The notes under the pieces were generated by a model that worked only from the letters and a program-made list of their open reading frames with translations, was not told the origin of the DNA and ran no database searches. Both the position numbers and the translations under genes were made by a program. DNA of 64,000 bases from NCBI GenBank assembly GCA_964395625.1, contig CAYNAR010000002.1, positions 781-64,780 of the forward strand, given 5' to 3'. The stretch is from an uncultured Gammaproteobacteria bacterium. GTDB lineage: Bacteria > Patescibacteriota > Patescibacteriia > Patescibacteriales > WJLG01. Shown here one piece after another: positions 845 through 22,915 of this stretch. Each line of letters starts with the position of its first letter. The first letter of the stretch is position 1.

Positions 845-1396
845 ATGCAACTCTCCGCTAAGCAATATCGGGCCGTCAAATTGGCCATCGTTTTGGTTCT
901 GGCCGCTCTCTTTAGCCAGCCGGTTATTTTTAAGAATTATCTCATTTCTGTGCCGGTACTCATCGTCGGCTCTGCGACATTGATTTTCTTCCGCAAGTAT
1001 GTCAAAGACGTCATGGTCGACGAGCGCGACTATGCCACGGCCGGAAAAGCGTCGGCGATAGCCATTCAGCTTTATTCGTATATCGCCGTCATTGGCATGT
1101 TTATCTTTTATTCCTTAGCCGAGCGTAATCCTTTCTATCAGGTCATTGGCATGACTTTGGCTTTGTCCACTGTCGTCTTGCTACTTTTGAGCGCGGCCAT
1201 CTTTCATTATTATAATAAATTCAAATTCACCGATAAAAAATTTCTTTTCACGGTGGCGGTTATAATCTTCTTCTTGATCTTGTCAGTATTCTCTATTCGC
1301 GCTTTGTCCGGTGAGGACGATTGGATGTGCCAAGACGGGGAGTGGGTGAAGCACGGCAATCCGTCTTTCCCAGCGCCGAATATAGAGTGTAAATAA
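845..1396 (+). CDS. integral membrane protein (about 4 TM segments; tentatively DUF2178-like) with a Cys-containing C-terminal tail
   Basis: 183-aa track ORF with several hydrophobic segments and the tail CQDGEWVKHGNPSFPAPNIECK. It is paired with a small XRE regulator, as in known membrane-protein/HTH pairs. Confidence 0.7.
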   Translation: MQLSAKQYRAVKLAIVLVLAALFSQPVIFKNYLISVPVLIVGSATLIFFRKYVKDVMVDERDYATAGKASAIAIQLYSYIAVIGMFIFYSLAERNPFYQVIGMTLALSTVVLLLLSAAIFHYYNKFKFTDKKFLFTVAVIIFFLILSVFSIRALSGEDDWMCQDGEWVKHGNPSFPAPNIECK

Positions 1397-1643: not shown

Positions 1644-1742
1644 TTTTTGGACATCGACCGCCTACTATTGACTTTTTTGTGTAAATGTTGTATTGTTTAG
1701 TCATAAATTTGTCATTTTAAAGTACAAGCAAAGGAGGATATC

Positions 1743-1919
1743 TTGAAAAAACCGTTTAAATTCGGAAACAATAAGGGTTTTACCCTCGTTGAGCTTATTA
1801 TCACTGTTGCGATTATCGGAATCCTTTCTCTTATGGTTCTTCAGCGCTTCGGTTGTGTCAAAGACTATGGCTATGGAAATTACCATCACCATTATCATCA
1901 CGCCGAAGACGATGATTGA
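1743..1919 (+). CDS. minimal prepilin-type (type IV pilin-like) protein, 58 aa, TTG start
   Basis: Absent from the ORF track (under 60 aa). A GGAGG SD lies 5 nt upstream of the TTG. MKKPFKFGNNKG|FTLVELIITVAIIGIL is a class III signal with G-1, F+1 and E+5. The tail is YGYGNYHHHYHHAEDDD, and a hairpin plus T-tract follows. Confidence 0.75.
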   Translation: MKKPFKFGNNKGFTLVELIITVAIIGILSLMVLQRFGCVKDYGYGNYHHHYHHAEDDD

Positions 1920-1948: not shown

Positions 1949-1985
1949 CCTCGCTGTCTTTAAAGATGGCGAGGTTTTTTATTTG
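1949..1985 (+). terminator. intrinsic terminator after the pilin gene
   Basis: CCTCGC (1949-1954) pairs with GCGAGG (1969-1974), followed by TTTTTTATTT. Confidence 0.6.
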
Positions 1986-2079: not shown

Positions 2080-3135
2080 ATGACTAGGAGAAGTTTGTTT
2101 ATGGATAGAAACAGTCTAGTGGATAAAATTAAGGCGACATTTTTAGGAGTCGCGATTGGTGATGCCTTGGGAATGCCTTATGAGAAATTGAAGCACGAGG
2201 AGGTGATAGCTTTGACCGGTGGCGACGTCAGTCGCTATGTCGATCCGAACGACAAGCATTTTCTCAAAGGGATACTTCGAGCCGGCGATACGACCGACGA
2301 CACCCAGCTTACGCTGGTCGTGGCCGAATCTTTGATAGCCTGCAGTGGATTCAATATCGAAGATTGCATCGCTAAACATGTCGTCGCCATGAAGAAGTCT
2401 ACTTTCGGTTGGGGGAAAGGGACGGTTTCCGCCATCAACAGATTAATAGACGGTGTCGATCCGCGTCTTAGCGGAACGATCGACGGTGCCGGAAATGGTG
2501 TTTCCATGAAGATAGCTCCTTTCGGAATCCTGATGGCGTTGTCTTATTTGCATCATGGTTGTTTGTCTAAAAGCGAAATTTTTAGAAGGGACATTTTTGA
2601 CCTTGGACTGATGACGCATCGCTCCGCCATGGCGCAGGCGTCCGGTTGGGTTCAGGCTCGGTCGGTCATGAATTGTTTTATCAGTGATTCCAAAGAGGGT
2701 GGATTCGCGGATCGTTTCTTGGCGGATGCCGTCGGGGCATGTGCCGATGGTGAATCGATAAATAGAGGGATAGATGGCATAAAGGAACGACTCGTCGACA
2801 GATTTGTCGAGATGCTTTATGATCAGATTTATTTTAAAGACATTCCTTTTTTGGCGACTCATTATGGGAAAGCTCCTTTTTATGTCTATGATTCTCTGCC
2901 TCTTTCTTACGCCTGCTTTCTTAAGAATCCTTATAGCATAGAATCGCTTTATGATGCCATCAGGGCGGGCGGGGACACCGATACGAACGCCTCCATGGTT
3001 GGGGCTCTCTTGGGGGCACTGAATGGGACGGCTGTTTTTCCGAGGTATTTGTTGGATAATTTGAATGACTACAAAGAAGTCGTAAGAATCGCCCATCTTT
3101 TTTGCGATCGATTCTTGGACTCGGCTCTTTTGTAA
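2080..3135 (+). CDS. ADP-ribosylglycohydrolase family protein
   Basis: 351 aa. GVAIGDALGMPYE, GDTTDDTQLTL and GGDTDTNASMVGALLGALNG match ARH/DraG-family motifs. A GAAGGAG SD lies 6 nt upstream. Confidence 0.85.
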   Translation: MTRRSLFMDRNSLVDKIKATFLGVAIGDALGMPYEKLKHEEVIALTGGDVSRYVDPNDKHFLKGILRAGDTTDDTQLTLVVAESLIACSGFNIEDCIAKHVVAMKKSTFGWGKGTVSAINRLIDGVDPRLSGTIDGAGNGVSMKIAPFGILMALSYLHHGCLSKSEIFRRDIFDLGLMTHRSAMAQASGWVQARSVMNCFISDSKEGGFADRFLADAVGACADGESINRGIDGIKERLVDRFVEMLYDQIYFKDIPFLATHYGKAPFYVYDSLPLSYACFLKNPYSIESLYDAIRAGGDTDTNASMVGALLGALNGTAVFPRYLLDNLNDYKEVVRIAHLFCDRFLDSALL

Positions 3136-3144
3136 TTTTTTTTA

Positions 3145-3179
3145 AACGGTGATTTTTATCGCCGTTTTTTTATTTTTTG
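3145..3179 (+). terminator. intrinsic terminator
   Basis: AACGGTGA pairs with TCGCCGTT (one G-U pair), followed by a long T-tract. Confidence 0.6.
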
Positions 3180-3205
3180 ACCGCACCATTCTTTTGAGTT
3201 AGAAT
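3177..3205 (+). promoter_or_regulatory. promoter TTGACC-17-TAGAAT
   Basis: The -10 hexamer ends at 3205, exactly 7 nt before ATG 3213. It overlaps the track start ATG 3204. Confidence 0.5.
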
Positions 3206-3212
3206 GTATTTT

Positions 3213-4007
3213 ATGGATGCTATAATAAAAGTTGAAAAACTGACTAAAAAATTCAAAGATTTTACTGCTGTTGATGATATTTCTTTCGAAGTTAAACCGG
3301 GAGAGATTCTGGCTTTTTTGGGCCCGAACGGTGCTGGCAAGACTACGACGATTAAGATGTTGACGACGATACTTAAGCCGACATCGGGTAGTATCGTGAT
3401 AGCCGGGCATGATCCGGTAAAACAGCAAGACGAAGTTCGTCGTTCTTTCGGTATCGTCTTTCAAGATTCCAGTATCGATGACGATTTGACGGCTCAGGAG
3501 AATATGGAGATTCATGCCGCCTTGTATCACTTACCGCCGACCGGACGCAGAGAGTATATCGCCAAACTTCTGCAGTTCGTAGAATTGGACGATAGACGCA
3601 AGGAATTGGTGAAGAATTTTTCCGGCGGTATGCGTCGTCGTTTGGAGATAGCCAAGGGTTTATTGCATCACCCGAAGATTTTATTTTTGGACGAACCGAC
3701 GCAAGGGCTCGATCCGCAGACGCGCAATCATATCTGGGAGTATGTTAAGAAGATGAATCAAGAAGAGGGGATGACCGTGTTTTTCACCACTCATTACATA
3801 GAAGAGGCTGATCGCTATGCCAGTCGTGTGATGGTTGTCGACCATGGTAAAATCGTCGCCTCCGGCACGCCGGATGAAATAAAAGCTCAAGCAGGAAAAG
3901 ACGATTTAGAGGATGCCTTTATCGCTTTGACCGGCCACGAGATTCGTGAAGAGAAGGTTGATGCCGGCGATCGTATGAAAATGCACGTTCGCGCCAGGAG
4001 GGGTTAA
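3213..4007 (+). CDS. ABC transporter ATP-binding protein (ABC-2/DrrA type)
   Basis: Walker A GPNGAGKTT, signature FSGGMRRRL and Walker B ILFLDEPT. The track start is 3204; I prefer ATG 3213 (MDAIIKVEKLTKKF) because the -10 box covers 3204. Confidence 0.9.
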   Translation: MDAIIKVEKLTKKFKDFTAVDDISFEVKPGEILAFLGPNGAGKTTTIKMLTTILKPTSGSIVIAGHDPVKQQDEVRRSFGIVFQDSSIDDDLTAQENMEIHAALYHLPPTGRREYIAKLLQFVELDDRRKELVKNFSGGMRRRLEIAKGLLHHPKILFLDEPTQGLDPQTRNHIWEYVKKMNQEEGMTVFFTTHYIEEADRYASRVMVVDHGKIVASGTPDEIKAQAGKDDLEDAFIALTGHEIREEKVDAGDRMKMHVRARRG

Positions 4008-4016
4008 ATATAAAAT

Positions 4017-4763
4017 ATGGAAATAGTCTATCAACTTTGGCTTAGGCAAGTAAAAAAATATTTTCGTTCCAAGTCGCGCATCTTCGGCTCTTTAGGTCAA
4101 CCGATACTTTTTATGTTGGCTTTCGGCTTCGGCTTCGGTCCGGTCTTCGCGCGTGCCGGCGAGGGGAATTATTTGGAATTTTTGGTGCCTGGCATAATCA
4201 CGATGAGTATAGTATTTATGTCGGTGTTTTCGGGTTTGGAGATAATCTGGGATAGGCAATTCGGTTTCTTGAAGGAGATGTTGGTGGCGCCGGTCGGTCG
4301 AATAAGAATAATGTTTTCACGTTGTTTGGGCGGGGCGACTGTGGCGTCTTTTCAGGGATTGATAGTTTTATTGTTGTCGCTTTTTGTGGGTTTTAGACCG
4401 GATGGCGTTTTAGCTGTGCTTTTTTCCGTATTTTTCATGTTCGTCGTCGCCTTTATCTTTACGCTTGTCGGCACCGGCATAGCCTGTCTGCTTAAAGATT
4501 TTCACGCCTTTCAGCTGATAGTCAATTTCTTGATCATGCCATTGGTTTTTCTTTCCGGCACTTTCTTTCCATTGAACGGATTACCGAAGGCGTTAGCCAT
4601 CGTCGTCAAGATTAATCCATTATCCTATGGTGTGGATGCGATTCGTTCTTGCCTGGTCGGATATGGTAATTTTCACATCTTTCATAGTTTATCCGTCCTT
4701 GGCGTGATAATGGTCGTGTTTTTGGCTGTGGCCAGCTATCTTTTTTCTAAGATCGAAATTTGA
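4017..4763 (+). CDS. ABC-2 type transporter permease
   Basis: 248 aa with multiple TM segments, immediately downstream of the ATPase gene. Confidence 0.85.
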   Translation: MEIVYQLWLRQVKKYFRSKSRIFGSLGQPILFMLAFGFGFGPVFARAGEGNYLEFLVPGIITMSIVFMSVFSGLEIIWDRQFGFLKEMLVAPVGRIRIMFSRCLGGATVASFQGLIVLLLSLFVGFRPDGVLAVLFSVFFMFVVAFIFTLVGTGIACLLKDFHAFQLIVNFLIMPLVFLSGTFFPLNGLPKALAIVVKINPLSYGVDAIRSCLVGYGNFHIFHSLSVLGVIMVVFLAVASYLFSKIEI

Positions 4764-10087: not shown

Positions 10088-10316
10088 TTTTCCTCCTGAG
10101 CTCGTGTGGTTAAAGAACATTTTTATTGTTGATATTATAATATTTAAAATTAAAAAAGTCAAGATTAGCTTAAAAATGCGTTTTTCCTCTTGCTTTTTGA
10201 GTGACTTGGGAGTATTATTAACAATTCAAGGGGTATTATCATTTTTGATACCTTTTTGTTTTATATAAAACATTGCCATTGTCAACTTTCGCTTGTCAAT
10301 CGGCAAAATAATACCT

Positions 10317-12524
10317 ATGTCCGATAACATTTTAAAGAAAATCGTCAATCCGTCTGGACGCGGTCGCTTGTGGCAGGTCGTCGTCTTGGTGATCGTTTTG
10401 GCGTCGGCCGCTTTCTTGATCGATGGCGGTAGCTATTACAATCGCGGAGTCGATTGGCTTTCCGCTAAGACCAACGGCTTCGCTCAATTGCCGAAGGCTA
10501 GTGAGAAGAATTTTCGTCTCGGTTTGGATTTACAGGGTGGAACGCATCTGGTCTATAAGGCCGATACGTCACAGGTTCCTGCCGGAGGTGAGGCTGATGC
10601 AGCCGAGGGTGTTCGCGACGTCATAGAAAAGAGAGTTAATGCTTATGGCGTGGCCGAACCTTTGGTTCAGGTCAATAAAGCCGGAGCCGATGACTATCGT
10701 GTAATCGTCGAATTGGCTGGCGTGAAAGATGTCGACGAGGCCATTAAAATGATCGGTGAGACTCCGATTTTGGAATTTAAGGAGCAAGTTTTCGGTCGTG
10801 AATTGACTGACGACGAACAAACTAAGATAAACGATGCCAATATCGCAGCCGAGAAGAAGGCCGAGGAGGTCCTTGGCAAGGTTCTGTCTCGTGGTGATTT
10901 CAATAAGTTAGCTAAAGAATATAACGAGAAAGGCACCTCTACCGCCGATGGTGTTTGGGTGGACTTGGAGAGCGATCCTGAATTGGCCGCCGCCTTGGCA
11001 AAGGTCAAGATTAACGGTGCCACTGATGTTGTCGAGACGGACGATGCTTATGTCGTTGCTAAATTGTTAGAAAAGAAGGTCGCTAAGAATTCTTTGACTG
11101 GTGAGGAGAAGAAACAGATTAAAGCTAGCCACATTTTGATTTGCTATCAGGGCGCGGAGTCTTGCAATAGCAGTACCACCAAGGAAGAGGCTTATGGCAA
11201 GATAAAGGAACTTAAGGAAAAAGCCACTAAAGATAATTTCGCCAAACTAGCTAGAGAGAATTCCACTGAACCAGGTGCCGATCAAACCGGCGGAGCTCTT
11301 GGTTGGTTCAGCAAGGGGATGATGGTTAAGCCTTTTGAGGATGCCGTCTTCTCTCAAAAGACAGGAACCGTCTCCTATGTCGTAGAGACAAAATTCGGCT
11401 ATCATTTGATACTCAAGGAGGATGAGAGAATTTTGGACAATTATCGCGTCCAAGAGATAGCCATCGCTAAGGTTAAGAAAGAAGAGTTTACTGGCACGGA
11501 CGAGAATTGGGTTGCCACTAAGTTGACCGGAAAATATCTCAAGCGTTCCAGTGTCGAGTACAGTGGACAGACCATGATGCCGGAAGTCGCTTTGGAATTC
11601 GATAGCGAGGGGGCTAAATTGTTCGAAGAGCTGACTGGAAGGAATATCGGCAAGCCTATTGCTATATTTTTGGACGGAGATGTCATTAGCGCTCCGACCG
11701 TTAATCAGAAGATTACTGGCGGCAGTGCTGTCATCTCTGGAAAGTTCAACATCATCGAGGCTAGGGATCTTTCTCGCCGTTTGAACTCCGGTGCTTTGCC
11801 TGTGCCGATAACATTGGTCAGTCAGCAGACCGTCGGCGCTTCGTTAGGTAAAGTTTCGATTAACCAGTCTTTGCAGGCGGCTTTGTGGGGTATTTTGTTG
11901 GTCGCCGCTTTCATGATAATTTTCTATAGATTGCCAGGCGTAGCGTCTGTCATCGCTTTATCCGTCTATAGTTTGATTCTTTTGGCTTTCTTCAAGTGTT
12001 GGGGTGTCGCCGTGGCTGCAGCTATAATCGCCATTATAGCCTATACAAAGCCTAAGGGGCCAGCTCTCGGTATTTCATTGGTCGCTTTATTAGCTTGGAT
12101 TGTGTTGATGATGAGTAACTCCTTCTTCTGGAGTTGGCCGATCACTTTGACTTTGCCGGGTATCGCCGGTTTGATTTTATCCGTCGGTATGGCCGTCGAT
12201 GCCAATATATTGATTTTTGAGCGCTATAAGGAGGAGATGCGAGCCGGTCGCGATAACGACAAAGCTATTGATATCGGATTCAAGCGCGCATGGCCTTCGA
12301 TTTTCGATGGTCATATGTCGACCGTATTGACTTGCGTCATTTTGTATTCCTTCTCCACAGGAATGGTCAAAGGTTTTGCCGTTTCCTTGCTTTTGGGTGT
12401 CTTGGCTTCGCTTTTTACCGCCGTTACGGTCACTAGAATAGTGTTGGAGGTGTTTCCGGAAAAATTATTCAATAATTCTTTCTTGGCCGGAGTAAAAAAA
12501 GGCGGAGAGCATAAAAAATCCTAA
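10317..12524 (+). CDS. secD: protein translocase subunit SecD carrying an inserted tandem parvulin-type PPIase module
   Basis: LGLDLQGGTHLVY, ...GALPVPI..., and LPGIAGLILSVGMAVDANILIFER are SecD hallmarks. An internal ASHILI...GGALGWFSKGMMVKPFEDAVF...KFGYHLILK is a canonical parvulin. The start was moved to ATG 10317. Confidence 0.9.
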   Translation: MSDNILKKIVNPSGRGRLWQVVVLVIVLASAAFLIDGGSYYNRGVDWLSAKTNGFAQLPKASEKNFRLGLDLQGGTHLVYKADTSQVPAGGEADAAEGVRDVIEKRVNAYGVAEPLVQVNKAGADDYRVIVELAGVKDVDEAIKMIGETPILEFKEQVFGRELTDDEQTKINDANIAAEKKAEEVLGKVLSRGDFNKLAKEYNEKGTSTADGVWVDLESDPELAAALAKVKINGATDVVETDDAYVVAKLLEKKVAKNSLTGEEKKQIKASHILICYQGAESCNSSTTKEEAYGKIKELKEKATKDNFAKLARENSTEPGADQTGGALGWFSKGMMVKPFEDAVFSQKTGTVSYVVETKFGYHLILKEDERILDNYRVQEIAIAKVKKEEFTGTDENWVATKLTGKYLKRSSVEYSGQTMMPEVALEFDSEGAKLFEELTGRNIGKPIAIFLDGDVISAPTVNQKITGGSAVISGKFNIIEARDLSRRLNSGALPVPITLVSQQTVGASLGKVSINQSLQAALWGILLVAAFMIIFYRLPGVASVIALSVYSLILLAFFKCWGVAVAAAIIAIIAYTKPKGPALGISLVALLAWIVLMMSNSFFWSWPITLTLPGIAGLILSVGMAVDANILIFERYKEEMRAGRDNDKAIDIGFKRAWPSIFDGHMSTVLTCVILYSFSTGMVKGFAVSLLLGVLASLFTAVTVTRIVLEVFPEKLFNNSFLAGVKKGGEHKKS

Positions 12525-19243: not shown

Positions 19244-22200
19244 ATGGAAAACAACAATCAGGAAAGGAAAAATATCTTCACAGGGATGGAGACTGATGTC
19301 TTGGCGTTTTGGGAGGCGAATAAGATTTTCGAGAAATCGGTTGAGAATCCGCCAGTTGGCGGAGCGCCGAAAGGTGAGTATGTTTTTTATGACGGTCCGC
19401 CGTTCGCGACTGGTACTCCGCATTATGGACATTTGGTCGCTTCGCTGATGAAGGATGTTGTGCCTCGTTATTGGACTATGAATGGTTTTTCCGTGCATCG
19501 CCGCTGGGGTTGGGATTGTCATGGTTTGCCGATCGAGAATATCGTCGAAAAAGAATTAGGACTCTCTTCGAAGAAGGAGATCGAGGAAAAGGTTGGCGTG
19601 GCCGAATTCAACCGCCTTTGCCGTTCCAAAGTTTTGTCATACGCCGACGAATGGAAGAAGACCGTCAAGCGTCTCGGTCGCTGGGTGGACATGGAATATC
19701 CATATCGCACCATGGACTTGCCGTTCATGGAAACGATTTGGCACAACATCAAACAGCTTTATGATAAGGGCTTGGTCTATAAGGATTATCGCTCCATGCA
19801 TATCTGTCCGCGCTGCGAGACGACTTTGTCGCAATCGGAAGTGGCGGAAGGGTATAAAGATGTTAAAGATATTACAGTAACCGCGAAATTCGAATTGGTT
19901 GATGAACCAGGCACTTTTGTTCTGGCTTGGACAACTACGCCGTGGACTTTACCGGGGAATGTGGCGCTCGCTGTTGGAGCTGATATCGATTATATTCTAG
20001 TTAAGGATTTGTATATACCAGAAAAAACAGCTAATCCGATAGGAGCTGTTGGAGAGGTCGTCATGAAAGAAGAGAAAACATCGCAATATATTTTAGCCAA
20101 AGAAAGATTTGAAAGTTACAAGAAGAGTTTTAACAATCAAGAACCAAAAATAATTAGAGAATTTAAAGGTTCCGAATTGGTTGGCAAAAGCTATAAGCCT
20201 GTTTTCGATAATTATGCCAGCGATGAAAAATTAGTTAATCGTGAACGCGGTTGGAAGATTTACGCCGCCGATTTTGTCGATACAGAGACTGGTACCGGCA
20301 TCGTTCATATCGCACCGGCTTTCGGCGAAGACGACATGAAGCTCGGTCGCGCGGAAAAATTGCCGTTCATTCAGCATGTTGGCATGGACGGAACTTTCAA
20401 GTCGGAAATGGGTGAGATGGCCGGTCTGCATGTCAAACCGAAAGACGATGTTCAAGCGACCGATGTGGCTATCATAAAATATTTAGCCGCCAAGGGTTTA
20501 TTATTCTCCAAAGAAAAGCATGAGCACTCTTATCCGCATTGTTGGCGCTGCGATACGCCGTTATTAAATTATGCTACTTCGTCTTGGTTCGTCGATATCA
20601 CCAAGATGAAAGACAAGATGCTGGAAGAAGCCAAGAACATCAACTGGTCGCCGGAACACGTCAAAGACGGCCGTTTCGGTCAGTGGCTCTCCGGTGCGCG
20701 CGACTGGTCGATTTCTCGCCAGCGTTTTTGGGCATCCTGCATACCGATTTGGGAATGCGCTTGCGGTAAAAAAGAAGTCTTGGGCTCTTTGGAAGAATTG
20801 TATAGAAAATCCAATGGCGCCATAACAAAGTTGATTTTGGTGCGTCATGGCCAGGCCGAGAACAATGTCGAGAATATCATTACTAATCGCACCGATAAAT
20901 ACGATTTGACCGAGCTTGGTAAGAAGCAGATCGCCGAGGCGGCGGAAAAAGTCGCTGGCGAGATTTCACAATATCCTGAGAAGGTTCTTTTCTTGGCCTC
21001 TCCGGTCTTGCGCGCCCACGAGAGCGCCGAGATGATTTCCAAAAAGATCGGCATCGGGTACAAGATGGATGATGGTATCAAGGACATGGACTTCGGTCAA
21101 TGGGAGGATCGGGACGAGGATGACGATTTGGATTATAACGACGAATTACGCATCAAGTATAACAAACTCACTAAGGAGGAGAAGTGGGCCTTTAAGCGTG
21201 GAGGCACCGGCGAGAGCAGTAAGGATGTTGGCGAAAGGGTCTTCATTTGGTTCAAAGATATTTTGAAAGAGAATGCTGGCAAGACGATCATTGCCGTATC
21301 GCACGCCGATCCGATCATTGATTTGGTTAATAAATTGAAGAGCAGAAGCGACCATGAATCTTATCTGGCTTGGGATGGTCAGGAGTATCCGAAGAATGGC
21401 GAGGTGAAGGTTTTGTATGTCGATAATTCCACCGGTTTAGAGGTGGATATTCATAAAGATTCTTTAGATAAAATCGGTCTTTTGTGCGACAAGTGCGGCG
21501 GCACGATGAAGCGCATCCCGGATGTCTTGGATTGTTGGTTCGAGTCCGGCTCCATGCCTTATGCGCAATGGCATTATCCTTTTGAGAATAAAGAGCGTTT
21601 GGATAAGAATTTTCCCGCGCAGTTCATTGCCGAAGGTATTGATCAGACTCGTGCTTGGTTCTATTATCTGCATGCTATTTCCGTCGGCATTAAAGACAAG
21701 CATGCTTTCGACAACGTCATAGTCAACGGCATCGTTTTGGCCGAGGATGGCAAGAAGATGTCTAAGAAGCTCAAGAACTATCCTGATCCGAACGAGGTTT
21801 TGGAGAGACAGGGTGCTGACGCTTTGCGTTATTATCTTCTGACTTCTCCGGTCATGCAGGCCGAGAATCTGAGCTTCTCCGAGAAGGGTGTGGCCGAGTG
21901 TTTGCGCAAGGTCAATATGCTTTTGTGGAACGTCTATAAGTTCTACGAAACTTATGCAGAAAATTCCCCTCTTGAGAGGGGTGGTGCCGTAATCGGCGAC
22001 GGGGTGTGTGAGGCTGGTCAGAAGAATGTTCTCGATAAATGGATTGTGGCAAGATTGAATCAATTGGTAAGCGAAGTTAGTGGGGGAATGAATAAATATG
22101 ATTTGCCAAAAGCTACTCGCCCAATAGCCGCATTCATCGATGATTTCTCCACTTGGTATTTAAGAAGGAGTCGCGACAGATTTAAAGAAGAAGGTGAGGA

Positions 22201-22915
22201 CAAGAATAACGCCTTGGCGACCACGAAATTCGTTTTGATAGAATTATCCAAGGTCATGGCGCCATTCACGCCGTTCATCGCCGAACAAATATGGCAGAAG
22301 GTGACAGGAAATAATCTTGCTAATGTTGAGAAGTCGGTTCATCTAGAAAAATGGCCTGATAATTCCCCTCTAGAAAGAGGGGTGGCCGAAGGCCGGGGTG
22401 TGTCCAGTGATTCCGAAGAAGGTGATGTTGTCGCGGAAATGGCAACTGTTCGTAAAATCGTAGAACTTGGTTTATCCAAGAGAGATGAAGTTGGAATCAA
22501 AGTTCGCCAACCGCTTTCTGAATTACGAATTACGAATTACGAGCTACGAAACGAATACGTTGATTTGATTAAAGACGAATTGAATGTAAAAAATATCTCT
22601 TGCAATGATGGTGAAGGTGAGTTAAGCGTCGAATTGGATACAACAATGACCCCGGAACTTCTTGCCGAAGGTGCTAAGCGCGAATTAGTCCGCTTAGTTA
22701 ACGCCGAACGCAAGAACGCCGACCTGACTATCGCCGACCGCATCAAGCTGTATTGCGACGCGCAGGGCGAGATGACTAAAAAGGCCTTGACCGATTTTGG
22801 CGATGAGCTTAAGAAGGATGTCTTGGCCGAAGAGATAATCATCGGCGGTGTCGAAGGCGGTAAAGAAGTCGATGTCAACGGAGAGAAAGCTGTTATTAAA
22901 ATAGAGAAGATATAA
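19244..22915 (+). CDS. ileS: isoleucine--tRNA ligase with an embedded histidine-phosphatase domain and two in-frame repeat insertions
   Basis: 1223 aa. PPFATGTPHYGHL (HIGH region), KMSKKLKNYPDP (KMSKS) and an editing domain. An internal LVRHGQ...SPVLRAHESA...VSHADP block spans 20822-21421. Confidence 0.95.
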   Translation: MENNNQERKNIFTGMETDVLAFWEANKIFEKSVENPPVGGAPKGEYVFYDGPPFATGTPHYGHLVASLMKDVVPRYWTMNGFSVHRRWGWDCHGLPIENIVEKELGLSSKKEIEEKVGVAEFNRLCRSKVLSYADEWKKTVKRLGRWVDMEYPYRTMDLPFMETIWHNIKQLYDKGLVYKDYRSMHICPRCETTLSQSEVAEGYKDVKDITVTAKFELVDEPGTFVLAWTTTPWTLPGNVALAVGADIDYILVKDLYIPEKTANPIGAVGEVVMKEEKTSQYILAKERFESYKKSFNNQEPKIIREFKGSELVGKSYKPVFDNYASDEKLVNRERGWKIYAADFVDTETGTGIVHIAPAFGEDDMKLGRAEKLPFIQHVGMDGTFKSEMGEMAGLHVKPKDDVQATDVAIIKYLAAKGLLFSKEKHEHSYPHCWRCDTPLLNYATSSWFVDITKMKDKMLEEAKNINWSPEHVKDGRFGQWLSGARDWSISRQRFWASCIPIWECACGKKEVLGSLEELYRKSNGAITKLILVRHGQAENNVENIITNRTDKYDLTELGKKQIAEAAEKVAGEISQYPEKVLFLASPVLRAHESAEMISKKIGIGYKMDDGIKDMDFGQWEDRDEDDDLDYNDELRIKYNKLTKEEKWAFKRGGTGESSKDVGERVFIWFKDILKENAGKTIIAVSHADPIIDLVNKLKSRSDHESYLAWDGQEYPKNGEVKVLYVDNSTGLEVDIHKDSLDKIGLLCDKCGGTMKRIPDVLDCWFESGSMPYAQWHYPFENKERLDKNFPAQFIAEGIDQTRAWFYYLHAISVGIKDKHAFDNVIVNGIVLAEDGKKMSKKLKNYPDPNEVLERQGADALRYYLLTSPVMQAENLSFSEKGVAECLRKVNMLLWNVYKFYETYAENSPLERGGAVIGDGVCEAGQKNVLDKWIVARLNQLVSEVSGGMNKYDLPKATRPIAAFIDDFSTWYLRRSRDRFKEEGEDKNNALATTKFVLIELSKVMAPFTPFIAEQIWQKVTGNNLANVEKSVHLEKWPDNSPLERGVAEGRGVSSDSEEGDVVAEMATVRKIVELGLSKRDEVGIKVRQPLSELRITNYELRNEYVDLIKDELNVKNISCNDGEGELSVELDTTMTPELLAEGAKRELVRLVNAERKNADLTIADRIKLYCDAQGEMTKKALTDFGDELKKDVLAEEIIIGGVEGGKEVDVNGEKAVIKIEKI
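21962..22009 (+). repeat. copy B of the two-hairpin palindromic repeat, in frame in ileS
   Basis: AATTCCCCTCTTGAGAGGGGTGGTGCCGTAATCGGCGACGGGGTGTGT, translated as NSPLERGGAVIGDGVC. Confidence 0.85.
22361..22403 (+). repeat. copy C of the two-hairpin palindromic repeat, in frame in ileS
   Basis: AATTCCCCTCTAGAAAGAGGGGTGGCCGAAGGCCGGGGTGTGT, translated as NSPLERGVAEGRGV. Confidence 0.85.
22520..22547 (+). repeat. tandem heptamer GAATTAC x3 plus one degenerate unit, inside ileS
   Basis: GAATTAC GAATTAC GAATTAC GAGCTAC, encoding ELRITNYEL. Confidence 0.7.

Follow-up and report, generated by a model that had tools for sequence, protein, structure and literature searches.

The plus-strand ORF at 1743-1919 of the window (the whole 64,000-nucleotide stretch of DNA analyzed here) appears from its sequence to be a genuine gene, neither a chance ORF nor a fragment. 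Its product is probably a minimal type IV pilin-like protein that would be processed by PilD and serve as a filament subunit of the lineage's type IV machinery; we put the probability of this reading at roughly 0.6. The gene seems to belong to a real family of mini-prepilins, confined to a narrow clade of three related CPR (Patescibacteria) species. What looks new is a type IVa-style prepilin at Flp-like size with a lineage-specific His/Tyr/Gly tail. An earlier note on this DNA had proposed a real minimal prepilin-type gene on the plus strand, and the proposal is supported by conservation at a syntenic locus and by substitutions that favor the plus frame.

The ORF, its translation (MKKPFKFGNNKGFTLVELIITVAIIGILSLMVLQRFGCVKDYGYGNYHHHYHHAEDDD), the GGAGG and the TTG start are all present as that note described them (Table 1), and the open frame 5′ of the TTG holds no ATG, GTG or TTG. 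The terminator that it placed after the ORF was recovered as well: the hairpin is followed by TTTTTTATTT, and the fold energy is -20.3 kcal/mol (z = -3.7). Judged by its own promoter-like site and terminator, the mini-prepilin gene would be a monocistronic, independently transcribed orphan. Four metagenome runs yielded contigs that encode the exact protein (L001-L003 and L089). The description of the gene as unannotated held in part. It appears to be missing from the NCBI record of the 119-kb source contig, since Logan is the only listed source of the protein, but it has been called, with an N_methyl match, on three Logan metagenome contigs from the same organism. Within-species polymorphism was uninformative because the gene is identical in all copies. 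The L002 contig differs from the window at 17 sites (16 substitutions and one 1-base indel) in 3164-3350, outside the mini-prepilin. All 16 substitutions fall within 88 bp (3263-3350) at the start of an ABC ATPase gene, are spaced in multiples of three and occupy third codon positions; the preceding 1.6 kb has no substitution, only the 1-base indel at 3164. This patch looks like a recombination or strain boundary.

Table 1. Positions of the mini-prepilin gene, its signals and its neighbors in the window.
Feature	Position	Strand	Remarks
Mini-prepilin CDS	1743..1919	+	58 codons + stop, TTG start
Shine-Dalgarno GGAGG	1733..1737	+	5-nt spacer to TTG at 1743
Promoter-like site TTGACT-17 nt-TATTGT, sigma-70-like	1668..1696	+	putative, from consensus scan
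Intrinsic terminator, hairpin + T-run	1949..1984	+	11-bp hairpin, 6 GC, at 1949-1974
Leader peptide MKKPFKFGNNKG	1743..1778	+	12 residues, basic, last residue Gly-1
alpha1-N segment FTLVELIITVAIIGILSLMVLQRFG	1779..1853	+	mature residues 1-25; Phe+1, Glu+5; HMM matches
Polar tail CVKDYGYGNYHHHYHHAEDDD	1854..1916	+	5 His, 4 Tyr, 5 acidic
HHHYHH cluster, inside polar tail	1884-1901	+	
Antisense ORF, 66 codons, judged spurious	1701..1901	-	no family match
DUF2178 membrane protein	845-1396	+	Pfam
XRE-type HTH_3 regulator, 63 aa	1452-1643	+	Pfam
ADP-ribosylglycohydrolase	2080-3135		downstream of mini-prepilin

The N-terminus has the class III layout, which can be written as MKKPFKFGNNKG|FTLVELIITVAIIGILSLMVL, with the bar at the predicted cleavage site. 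A short basic leader, Gly-1, Phe+1, Glu+5 and a run of ~20 hydrophobic residues are all in place. The earlier note had read this as a prepilin peptidase signal and suggested a search with the TIGR02532 and Pfam N_methyl HMMs; both profiles score above their curated cut-offs, N_methyl (PF07963) at 36.2 bits (cut-off 21.2, E = 3.7e-9) and TIGR02532 at 34.1 bits (cut-off 16.3). By the HMMs the protein thus belongs among the prepilin-type N-terminal cleavage/methylation domain proteins. The two relatives described below score 34.5 and 36.3 bits with N_methyl, also above 21.2, the E-value is about 1e-9 in three independent members, and Gly-1, Phe+1 and Glu+5 are invariant across all three. A combined regex and profile scan of the six frames of the 64 kb gave no second convincing class III signal; the other three regex matches are frame fragments of 22-68 codons that the family profile does not match. 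The signal of the window protein is far beyond chance. Cleavage after G12 is predicted from the class III signal rule (PMC4471445) and would leave 46 residues in the window protein (40 and 51 in its relatives), with N-methyl-FTLVELIITVAIIGILSLMVLQR as the predicted N-terminal peptide and DYGYGNYHHHYHHAEDDD as the C-terminal peptide.

Homologous mini-ORFs in relatives, which the earlier note advised seeking, turned up as divergent, syntenic genes in L005/L090 and in L093. L005 was reached as the locus of the closest relative of the window's ADP-ribosylglycohydrolase (63% identity). Its member is an uncalled 50-codon ORF (L005:1049-1201) with the product MKRPKLNKSG|FTLVELIVVVAIIAILAFAICGKINQGVGSHNSYHGHQDR; its start context is AAAGGAGGAG and then GTG, and a terminator lies 3′ of the gene. 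This member is identical in L090, an NCBI MAG contig (GCA_964547855.1), and in L091, and partial in L092, the latter two copies coming from further Logan runs. The third member (MTNPCKSRKSGKNAG|FTLIELLVVIVIIGILVTLALPRFGVKIGNGYHNNGHYGYQHQHHGDFNNP, L093:3270-3470) was found on L093/L094, where DUF2178 is 75% identical. It starts with AAGGAGG, 5 nt and ATG, and it too has a terminator 3′ of the gene. Its promoter-like site, TTGACA-17-TATTAT with an upstream TG, is nearer the consensus than that of the window. As in the window, a DUF2178-HTH pair, orthologous to that of the window, stands upstream of the mini-prepilin in L005/L090 and L093. The order in L005 is DUF2178, HTH, a 348-nt 'empty' gap that holds the mini-prepilin, and YkuD; in L093 the mini-prepilin sits one gene further downstream, after NDK.

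The gene was not found beyond these species at the loci searched. L095-L101, where DUF2178 is 56-61% identical, have no mini-prepilin, nor was one found at eleven more distant DUF2178-HTH loci. An HTH-anchored metagenome scan of 80 loci gave no mini-prepilin after the HTH gene in distant lineages, and the regex matches in distant HTH loci were false positives. L006 and L007 carry an ADP-ribosylglycohydrolase 62% identical to that of the window, and the partial gene upstream of it is not a pilin. A reference-genome scan with the ADP-ribosylglycohydrolase returned only L004 from Paceibacter, 28% identical and non-syntenic. Its absence from the next relatives out makes the gene dispensable at the family/order scale.

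A word-indexed protein search matched only the window protein itself. Exhaustive phmmer over 1.84 billion protein representatives gave no full-length relative; it returned 48 other proteins, and those examined align through the N-terminal helix only. The phmmer result could be read as a lack of conservation, a reading overturned by the uncalled ORF in L005. Database relatives of full length are missing because gene callers skipped the counterparts or placed them on the wrong strand. That callers mishandle this family is plain from the records. In the NCBI MAG contig nothing is annotated at the mini-prepilin locus (L090:7723-8071), at L093:3198-3497 (-) the caller chose a 99-aa antisense ORF over the mini-prepilin, and the ORF list behind the earlier note had only the antisense ORF at 1701-1901 (-) of the window. 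One protein from the exhaustive search, a 99-aa prepilin, has LPRFGC after the helix where the window protein has LQRFGC; its helix may be of the same lineage, which would make it a longer relative.

The call in L093 bears on which strand is coding. If the antisense ORF of Table 1 were the gene, or the region were non-coding altogether, the plus-strand ORF would encode nothing. The antisense ORF is indeed open in all three species and was the caller's choice in one of them, but we consider this account barely credible. The antisense product has no family match in a profile search, and the mini-prepilin region has neither an Rfam match nor a tRNA. The Shine-Dalgarno sequences, promoter-like sites and terminators point along the plus strand, as do the N_methyl matches in three independent sequences. 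Substitutions also favor the plus frame. In the comparison of the window with L005, the GFTLVELI..IL block of 17 codons has 11 with synonymous changes only, three with conservative changes and three identical ones. Over 25 codons, differences in the three pairs are most frequent at third positions (18/16/13), ahead of first (11/8/11) and second positions (6/6/9), and these third positions are the first codon positions of the antisense ORF. Amino-acid identity is 0.48-0.56 in the plus frame and at most 0.46 in any other, with 0.17-0.46 between relatives in the antisense frame. The antisense ORF, with no family match and a less conserved frame, is accordingly judged spurious, as it was in the earlier note.

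The ORF might still be a decaying 5′ remnant of a full-length pilin gene, i.e., an N-terminal pseudogene fragment. Known families match only the N-terminal signal and helix, the 1.84 billion representatives hold no full-length homolog, and the next relatives out lack the gene, all of which would fit such decay. The start, Shine-Dalgarno sequence, short ORF and terminator are, however, intact in three species at ~50-60% nucleotide identity in the block, and changes in the helix are mostly synonymous. In addition, no pilin-like continuation occurs in any frame of the 160 nt to the next gene, and the tails share a common composition and an RFG..GY..H motif. We regard a remnant as very unlikely.

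The tails align poorly across the three members, sharing an RFG..GY..H(x)H pattern and an enrichment in His, Tyr and Gly. Long ORFs of the window contain 4.4% His plus Tyr, and the tail of the window protein contains 43% (binomial P = 1e-7); the corresponding values in the relatives' tails are 31% (P = 1e-5) and 20% (P = 1e-2). The likeness beyond the signal is seen when RFG-VK..GYGNYHHHYHH of the window is set against RFGVKIGNGYHNNGHYGYQHQHH, and homology between the members thus appears to extend past the class III signal. A conserved Cys or disulfide was ruled out because the mature L093 protein has no Cys. Overall identity among the members is 47-48%, and the neighbors reach 89% (HTH), 75% (DUF2178) and 63% (ADP-ribosylglycohydrolase) to the relatives. 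The mini-gene diverges faster than its neighbors, as would commonly be seen in surface-exposed pilins. A single-sequence AlphaFold2 model (mean pLDDT 70.6) has one helix over precursor residues 15-44, ending at about residue 32 of the mature protein. Confidence was highest in the alpha1-N block (pLDDT 86-94) and lower in the last 14 residues (45-58), which have no regular secondary structure.

These features suggest a mechanism in which the 58-aa precursor would insert into the membrane via its class III signal, and the prepilin peptidase (PilD) would cleave it after Gly12 and N-methylate Phe+1. The 46-aa product would consist of a hydrophobic alpha1-N helix (~25 residues) and an extracytoplasmic tail of ~20 residues, rich in His, Tyr and Gly and with an acidic end. 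Having neither alpha1-C nor a globular domain, it would therefore behave like a minimal pilin of the Flp/Tad type. The helix would pack in the filament core, with assembly by the lineage's PilB, PilC and PilM, leaving the tail exposed at the filament surface, where coordination of divalent metals or adhesion would be possible roles for it. What we infer for this protein is its processing, its entry into a filament and the function of the tail. For class III signals in general, membrane insertion, PilD cleavage, N-methylation and extraction of alpha1-N into the filament core by a PilB/PilC-type machine have been described (PMC4471445).

Canonical type IVa pilins have a full alpha1 helix of ~53 residues and a globular alpha/beta domain. 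The window protein, with 46 mature residues and a single helix, does not have the features of a canonical type IVa major pilin (PilA/PilE), and it scores 25.8 bits with NF041775 PilA (cut-off 400). The Flp/Tad pilins (type IVb/IVc; Caulobacter PilA, Aggregatibacter Flp1) share its size class and architecture: a mature protein of ~40-50 residues that is essentially the alpha1-N helix with a short C-terminal stretch and lacks a globular beta-sheet domain. Flp/Tad prepilins may be as short as 44 residues (PMC4471445), and globular-domain-free Tad/Flp pilins of equal size form filaments (PMC11067988, PMC10710030, PMC4471445). They offer the best model for how a mini-prepilin subunit could work. 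The signals differ, however. That of the mini-prepilins is G|FTL(V/I)EL across the three members (G|FTLVEL in the window), an N_methyl signal in the type IVa/T2SS style with Phe+1, and not the G|xxxxEY of Flp; the tail rich in His, Tyr and Gly is a further difference. None of the three members matched Flp_Fap (PF04964) at E ≤ 10, no tad gene was found among the window ORFs scanned, and the protein was not assigned to Flp/Tad.

The closest PDB sequences are those of the Geobacter 'Geopilin domain 1' (2m7g, 6vk9, 7tgg and 9egp; E = 2.4e-12, profile positions 6-45). The truncated type IVa PilA-N of Geobacter has the same N_methyl signal, a truncated architecture and aromatics at 1 and 24. The mini-prepilin is 15 residues shorter (46 aa mature, 40-51 in the family, against the 61-aa chain of 2m7g), its tail is unrelated and no pilA-C-like gene lies downstream. 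The earlier note's view that the protein is shorter than the truncated Geobacter-type pilins holds (46 vs. 61 aa), but Flp/Tad pilins are equally small, so size alone is not unprecedented. A split pilin (PilA-N/PilA-C) was considered and rejected because there is no conserved downstream partner; the downstream genes are not conserved between species. The aromatic density of the window product (13% FWY, 24% including His, maximum gap 22, with aromatics at positions 1, 24 and 32) reaches the thresholds of a survey (10.1101/668343) in which truncated e-pilins were found only in a Deltaproteobacteria cluster. We treat conductivity as speculation because the product is too short for the later aromatic positions.

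Minor pilins and pseudopilins (GspG-J, ComGC-GG, PpdD, FimU/PilV-type) have the same prepilin-peptidase-dependent N-terminus, and the window protein gives weak N-terminal matches to many of their NCBIfam models. They differ from the mini-prepilin in having globular domains and machinery operons, and all equivalog scores are far below cut-off (GspH 23.7 vs. 80, ComGE 21.2 vs. 49); with these low scores and an orphan gene, the protein was not placed among the T2SS/Com pseudopilins. Three phage families (phrog_10597, phrog_13280 and phrog_11263) are small, with profile lengths of 59-72, and carry the same N-terminal motif, so very short N_methyl proteins also occur in phages. The match spans residues 10-36 only, however, with no similarity in the tail, and the window locus has no phage context. 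Literature searches turned up no account of CPR N_methyl pilins that are His-rich or shorter than 50 residues. The Pam pili recently reported from CPR belong to an unrelated system based on donor-strand exchange.

The mini-prepilin gene stands apart from pilus genes. Neither pilD, pilB, pilC nor pilM was found among the 30 ORFs scanned in the window (1-31.7 kb and 40-41.8 kb), and the 6 kb upstream of the window (L088) hold no pilus machinery gene and no other pilin gene. Beyond the ADP-ribosylglycohydrolase the window continues with an ABC-2 transporter pair, a YkuD L,D-transpeptidase, a spermidine-synthase-like protein and a P-type ATPase, and further on with SecDF, MreBC, a 178-aa ORF in the MreD position, PBP2 and IleRS. 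The nearest named homologs of the neighbors are in MAGs of Candidatus Uhrbacteria, Falkowbacteria, Paceibacterota and Parcubacteria. The whole 64 kb gave neither a tRNA gene nor an Rfam family at the gathering threshold. The gene downstream of the mini-prepilin differs by species: ADP-ribosylglycohydrolase, YkuD or an ABC transporter. The window and L005/L090 are locally rearranged (window 2080-4763 vs. L005:1332-4850). The ADP-ribosylglycohydrolase follows the mini-prepilin in the window and the spermidine-synthase-like gene in L005/L090, and L005/L090 lack the ABC-2 transporter pair at this locus.

Upstream, DUF2178 and the XRE-type HTH_3 regulator form a widespread, tightly coupled two-gene module, the genes of which often overlap. 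We saw it in the window, L005, L090, L093, L095, L098 and L008-L018, and a number of distant lineages have, in place of a prepilin, a different small membrane protein after it. Two other products of the window have embedded domains. The IleRS (19244-22915 (+), 1223 aa) carries a His_Phos_1 (histidine-phosphatase) domain at residues 530-698, with a stretch of the class I synthetase catalytic domain on either side, which is an unusual insertion. The SecD/SecDF-type protein (10293-12524 (+), 743 aa) has PPIC-type rotamase matches in two stretches of its periplasmic region, an architecture also present in the related species (L090:15273-17474).

Pilus machinery was found in a relative. L095 (NCBI GCA_964486475.1) encodes PilM_2 and an MshEN+T2SSE PilB-type ATPase (L095:16535-20552), and no ORF with a class III signal was found in a 20-kb stretch of L095. 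With the PilM_2 and ATPase genes are three small genes (293, 204 and 84 aa) that are possibly PilN/O-like, and the region lies ~6 kb from the DUF2178-HTH pair of L095. T4P are described as well conserved in CPR (PMC11623550). A minimal pilin or pseudopilin role is the likeliest one because the relative has PilM/PilB, T4P are conserved in CPR and Tad/Flp pilins polymerize.

The filament reading has its limits: the gene is an orphan, the tail is kept in composition only, and 46 aa is less than an alpha1 helix. To our knowledge, no type IVa machine polymerizes a 46-residue subunit, shorter than the full alpha1 helix. The main alternative is a real protein that is processed and does not polymerize. 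The class III signal would do no more than bring about the insertion and processing of a small, His-rich peptide anchored in the membrane by a single pass. The tail of this peptide would work at the cell surface, for instance in capturing or buffering Zn, Ni or Cu, or the peptide would compete as a substrate and so modulate PilD or pilus assembly. Such a peptide would suit an orphan location away from pilus genes, a mature length of 40-51 aa and a conserved position beside a membrane protein and regulator pair. It would also suit a tail that keeps a His/Tyr/Gly composition, typical of metal-binding or low-complexity peptides and not of a folded interface. It is less easily squared with the strict retention of Gly-1, Phe+1 and Glu+5 in three species, since Glu+5 and N-methyl-Phe are linked to filament assembly and not to mere anchoring (PMC4471445). 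Minimal Tad pilins of equal size polymerize (PMC11067988), and no metal-transport or metal-sensing gene is consistently adjacent. We consider this peptide possible but unlikely, and prefer the filament subunit.

More speculatively, the three members could represent an unrecognized class of type IVa-derived CPR 'micro-pilins' that has converged on the bare alpha1-N solution of Flp/Tad, with a dense His/Tyr surface. The His/Tyr array would then be metal-chelating, redox-active or a pH-switchable adhesive, and would act in attachment to a host or mineral. Such a class may be far commoner in Patescibacteria than protein databases indicate, because callers skip the gene or call the antisense ORF. 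We find a class of this kind doubtful.

For host attachment and DNA uptake, the leading candidates in CPR are type IV pili, and the pilin repertoires of these organisms are poorly cataloged. The mini-prepilins suggest that a type IVa-style prepilin can shrink to 40-51 residues when mature, as small as Flp, and yet be kept by selection. Genes like these are systematically lost from annotation, one having been skipped and one replaced by an antisense call, and CPR pilin inventories and protein-database searches will therefore under-count them. The conserved His/Tyr/Gly tail is a peptide that can be synthesized to address questions of metal binding or adhesion. If the product is indeed a filament subunit, the mini-prepilins would represent an independent origin of globular-domain-free pili.
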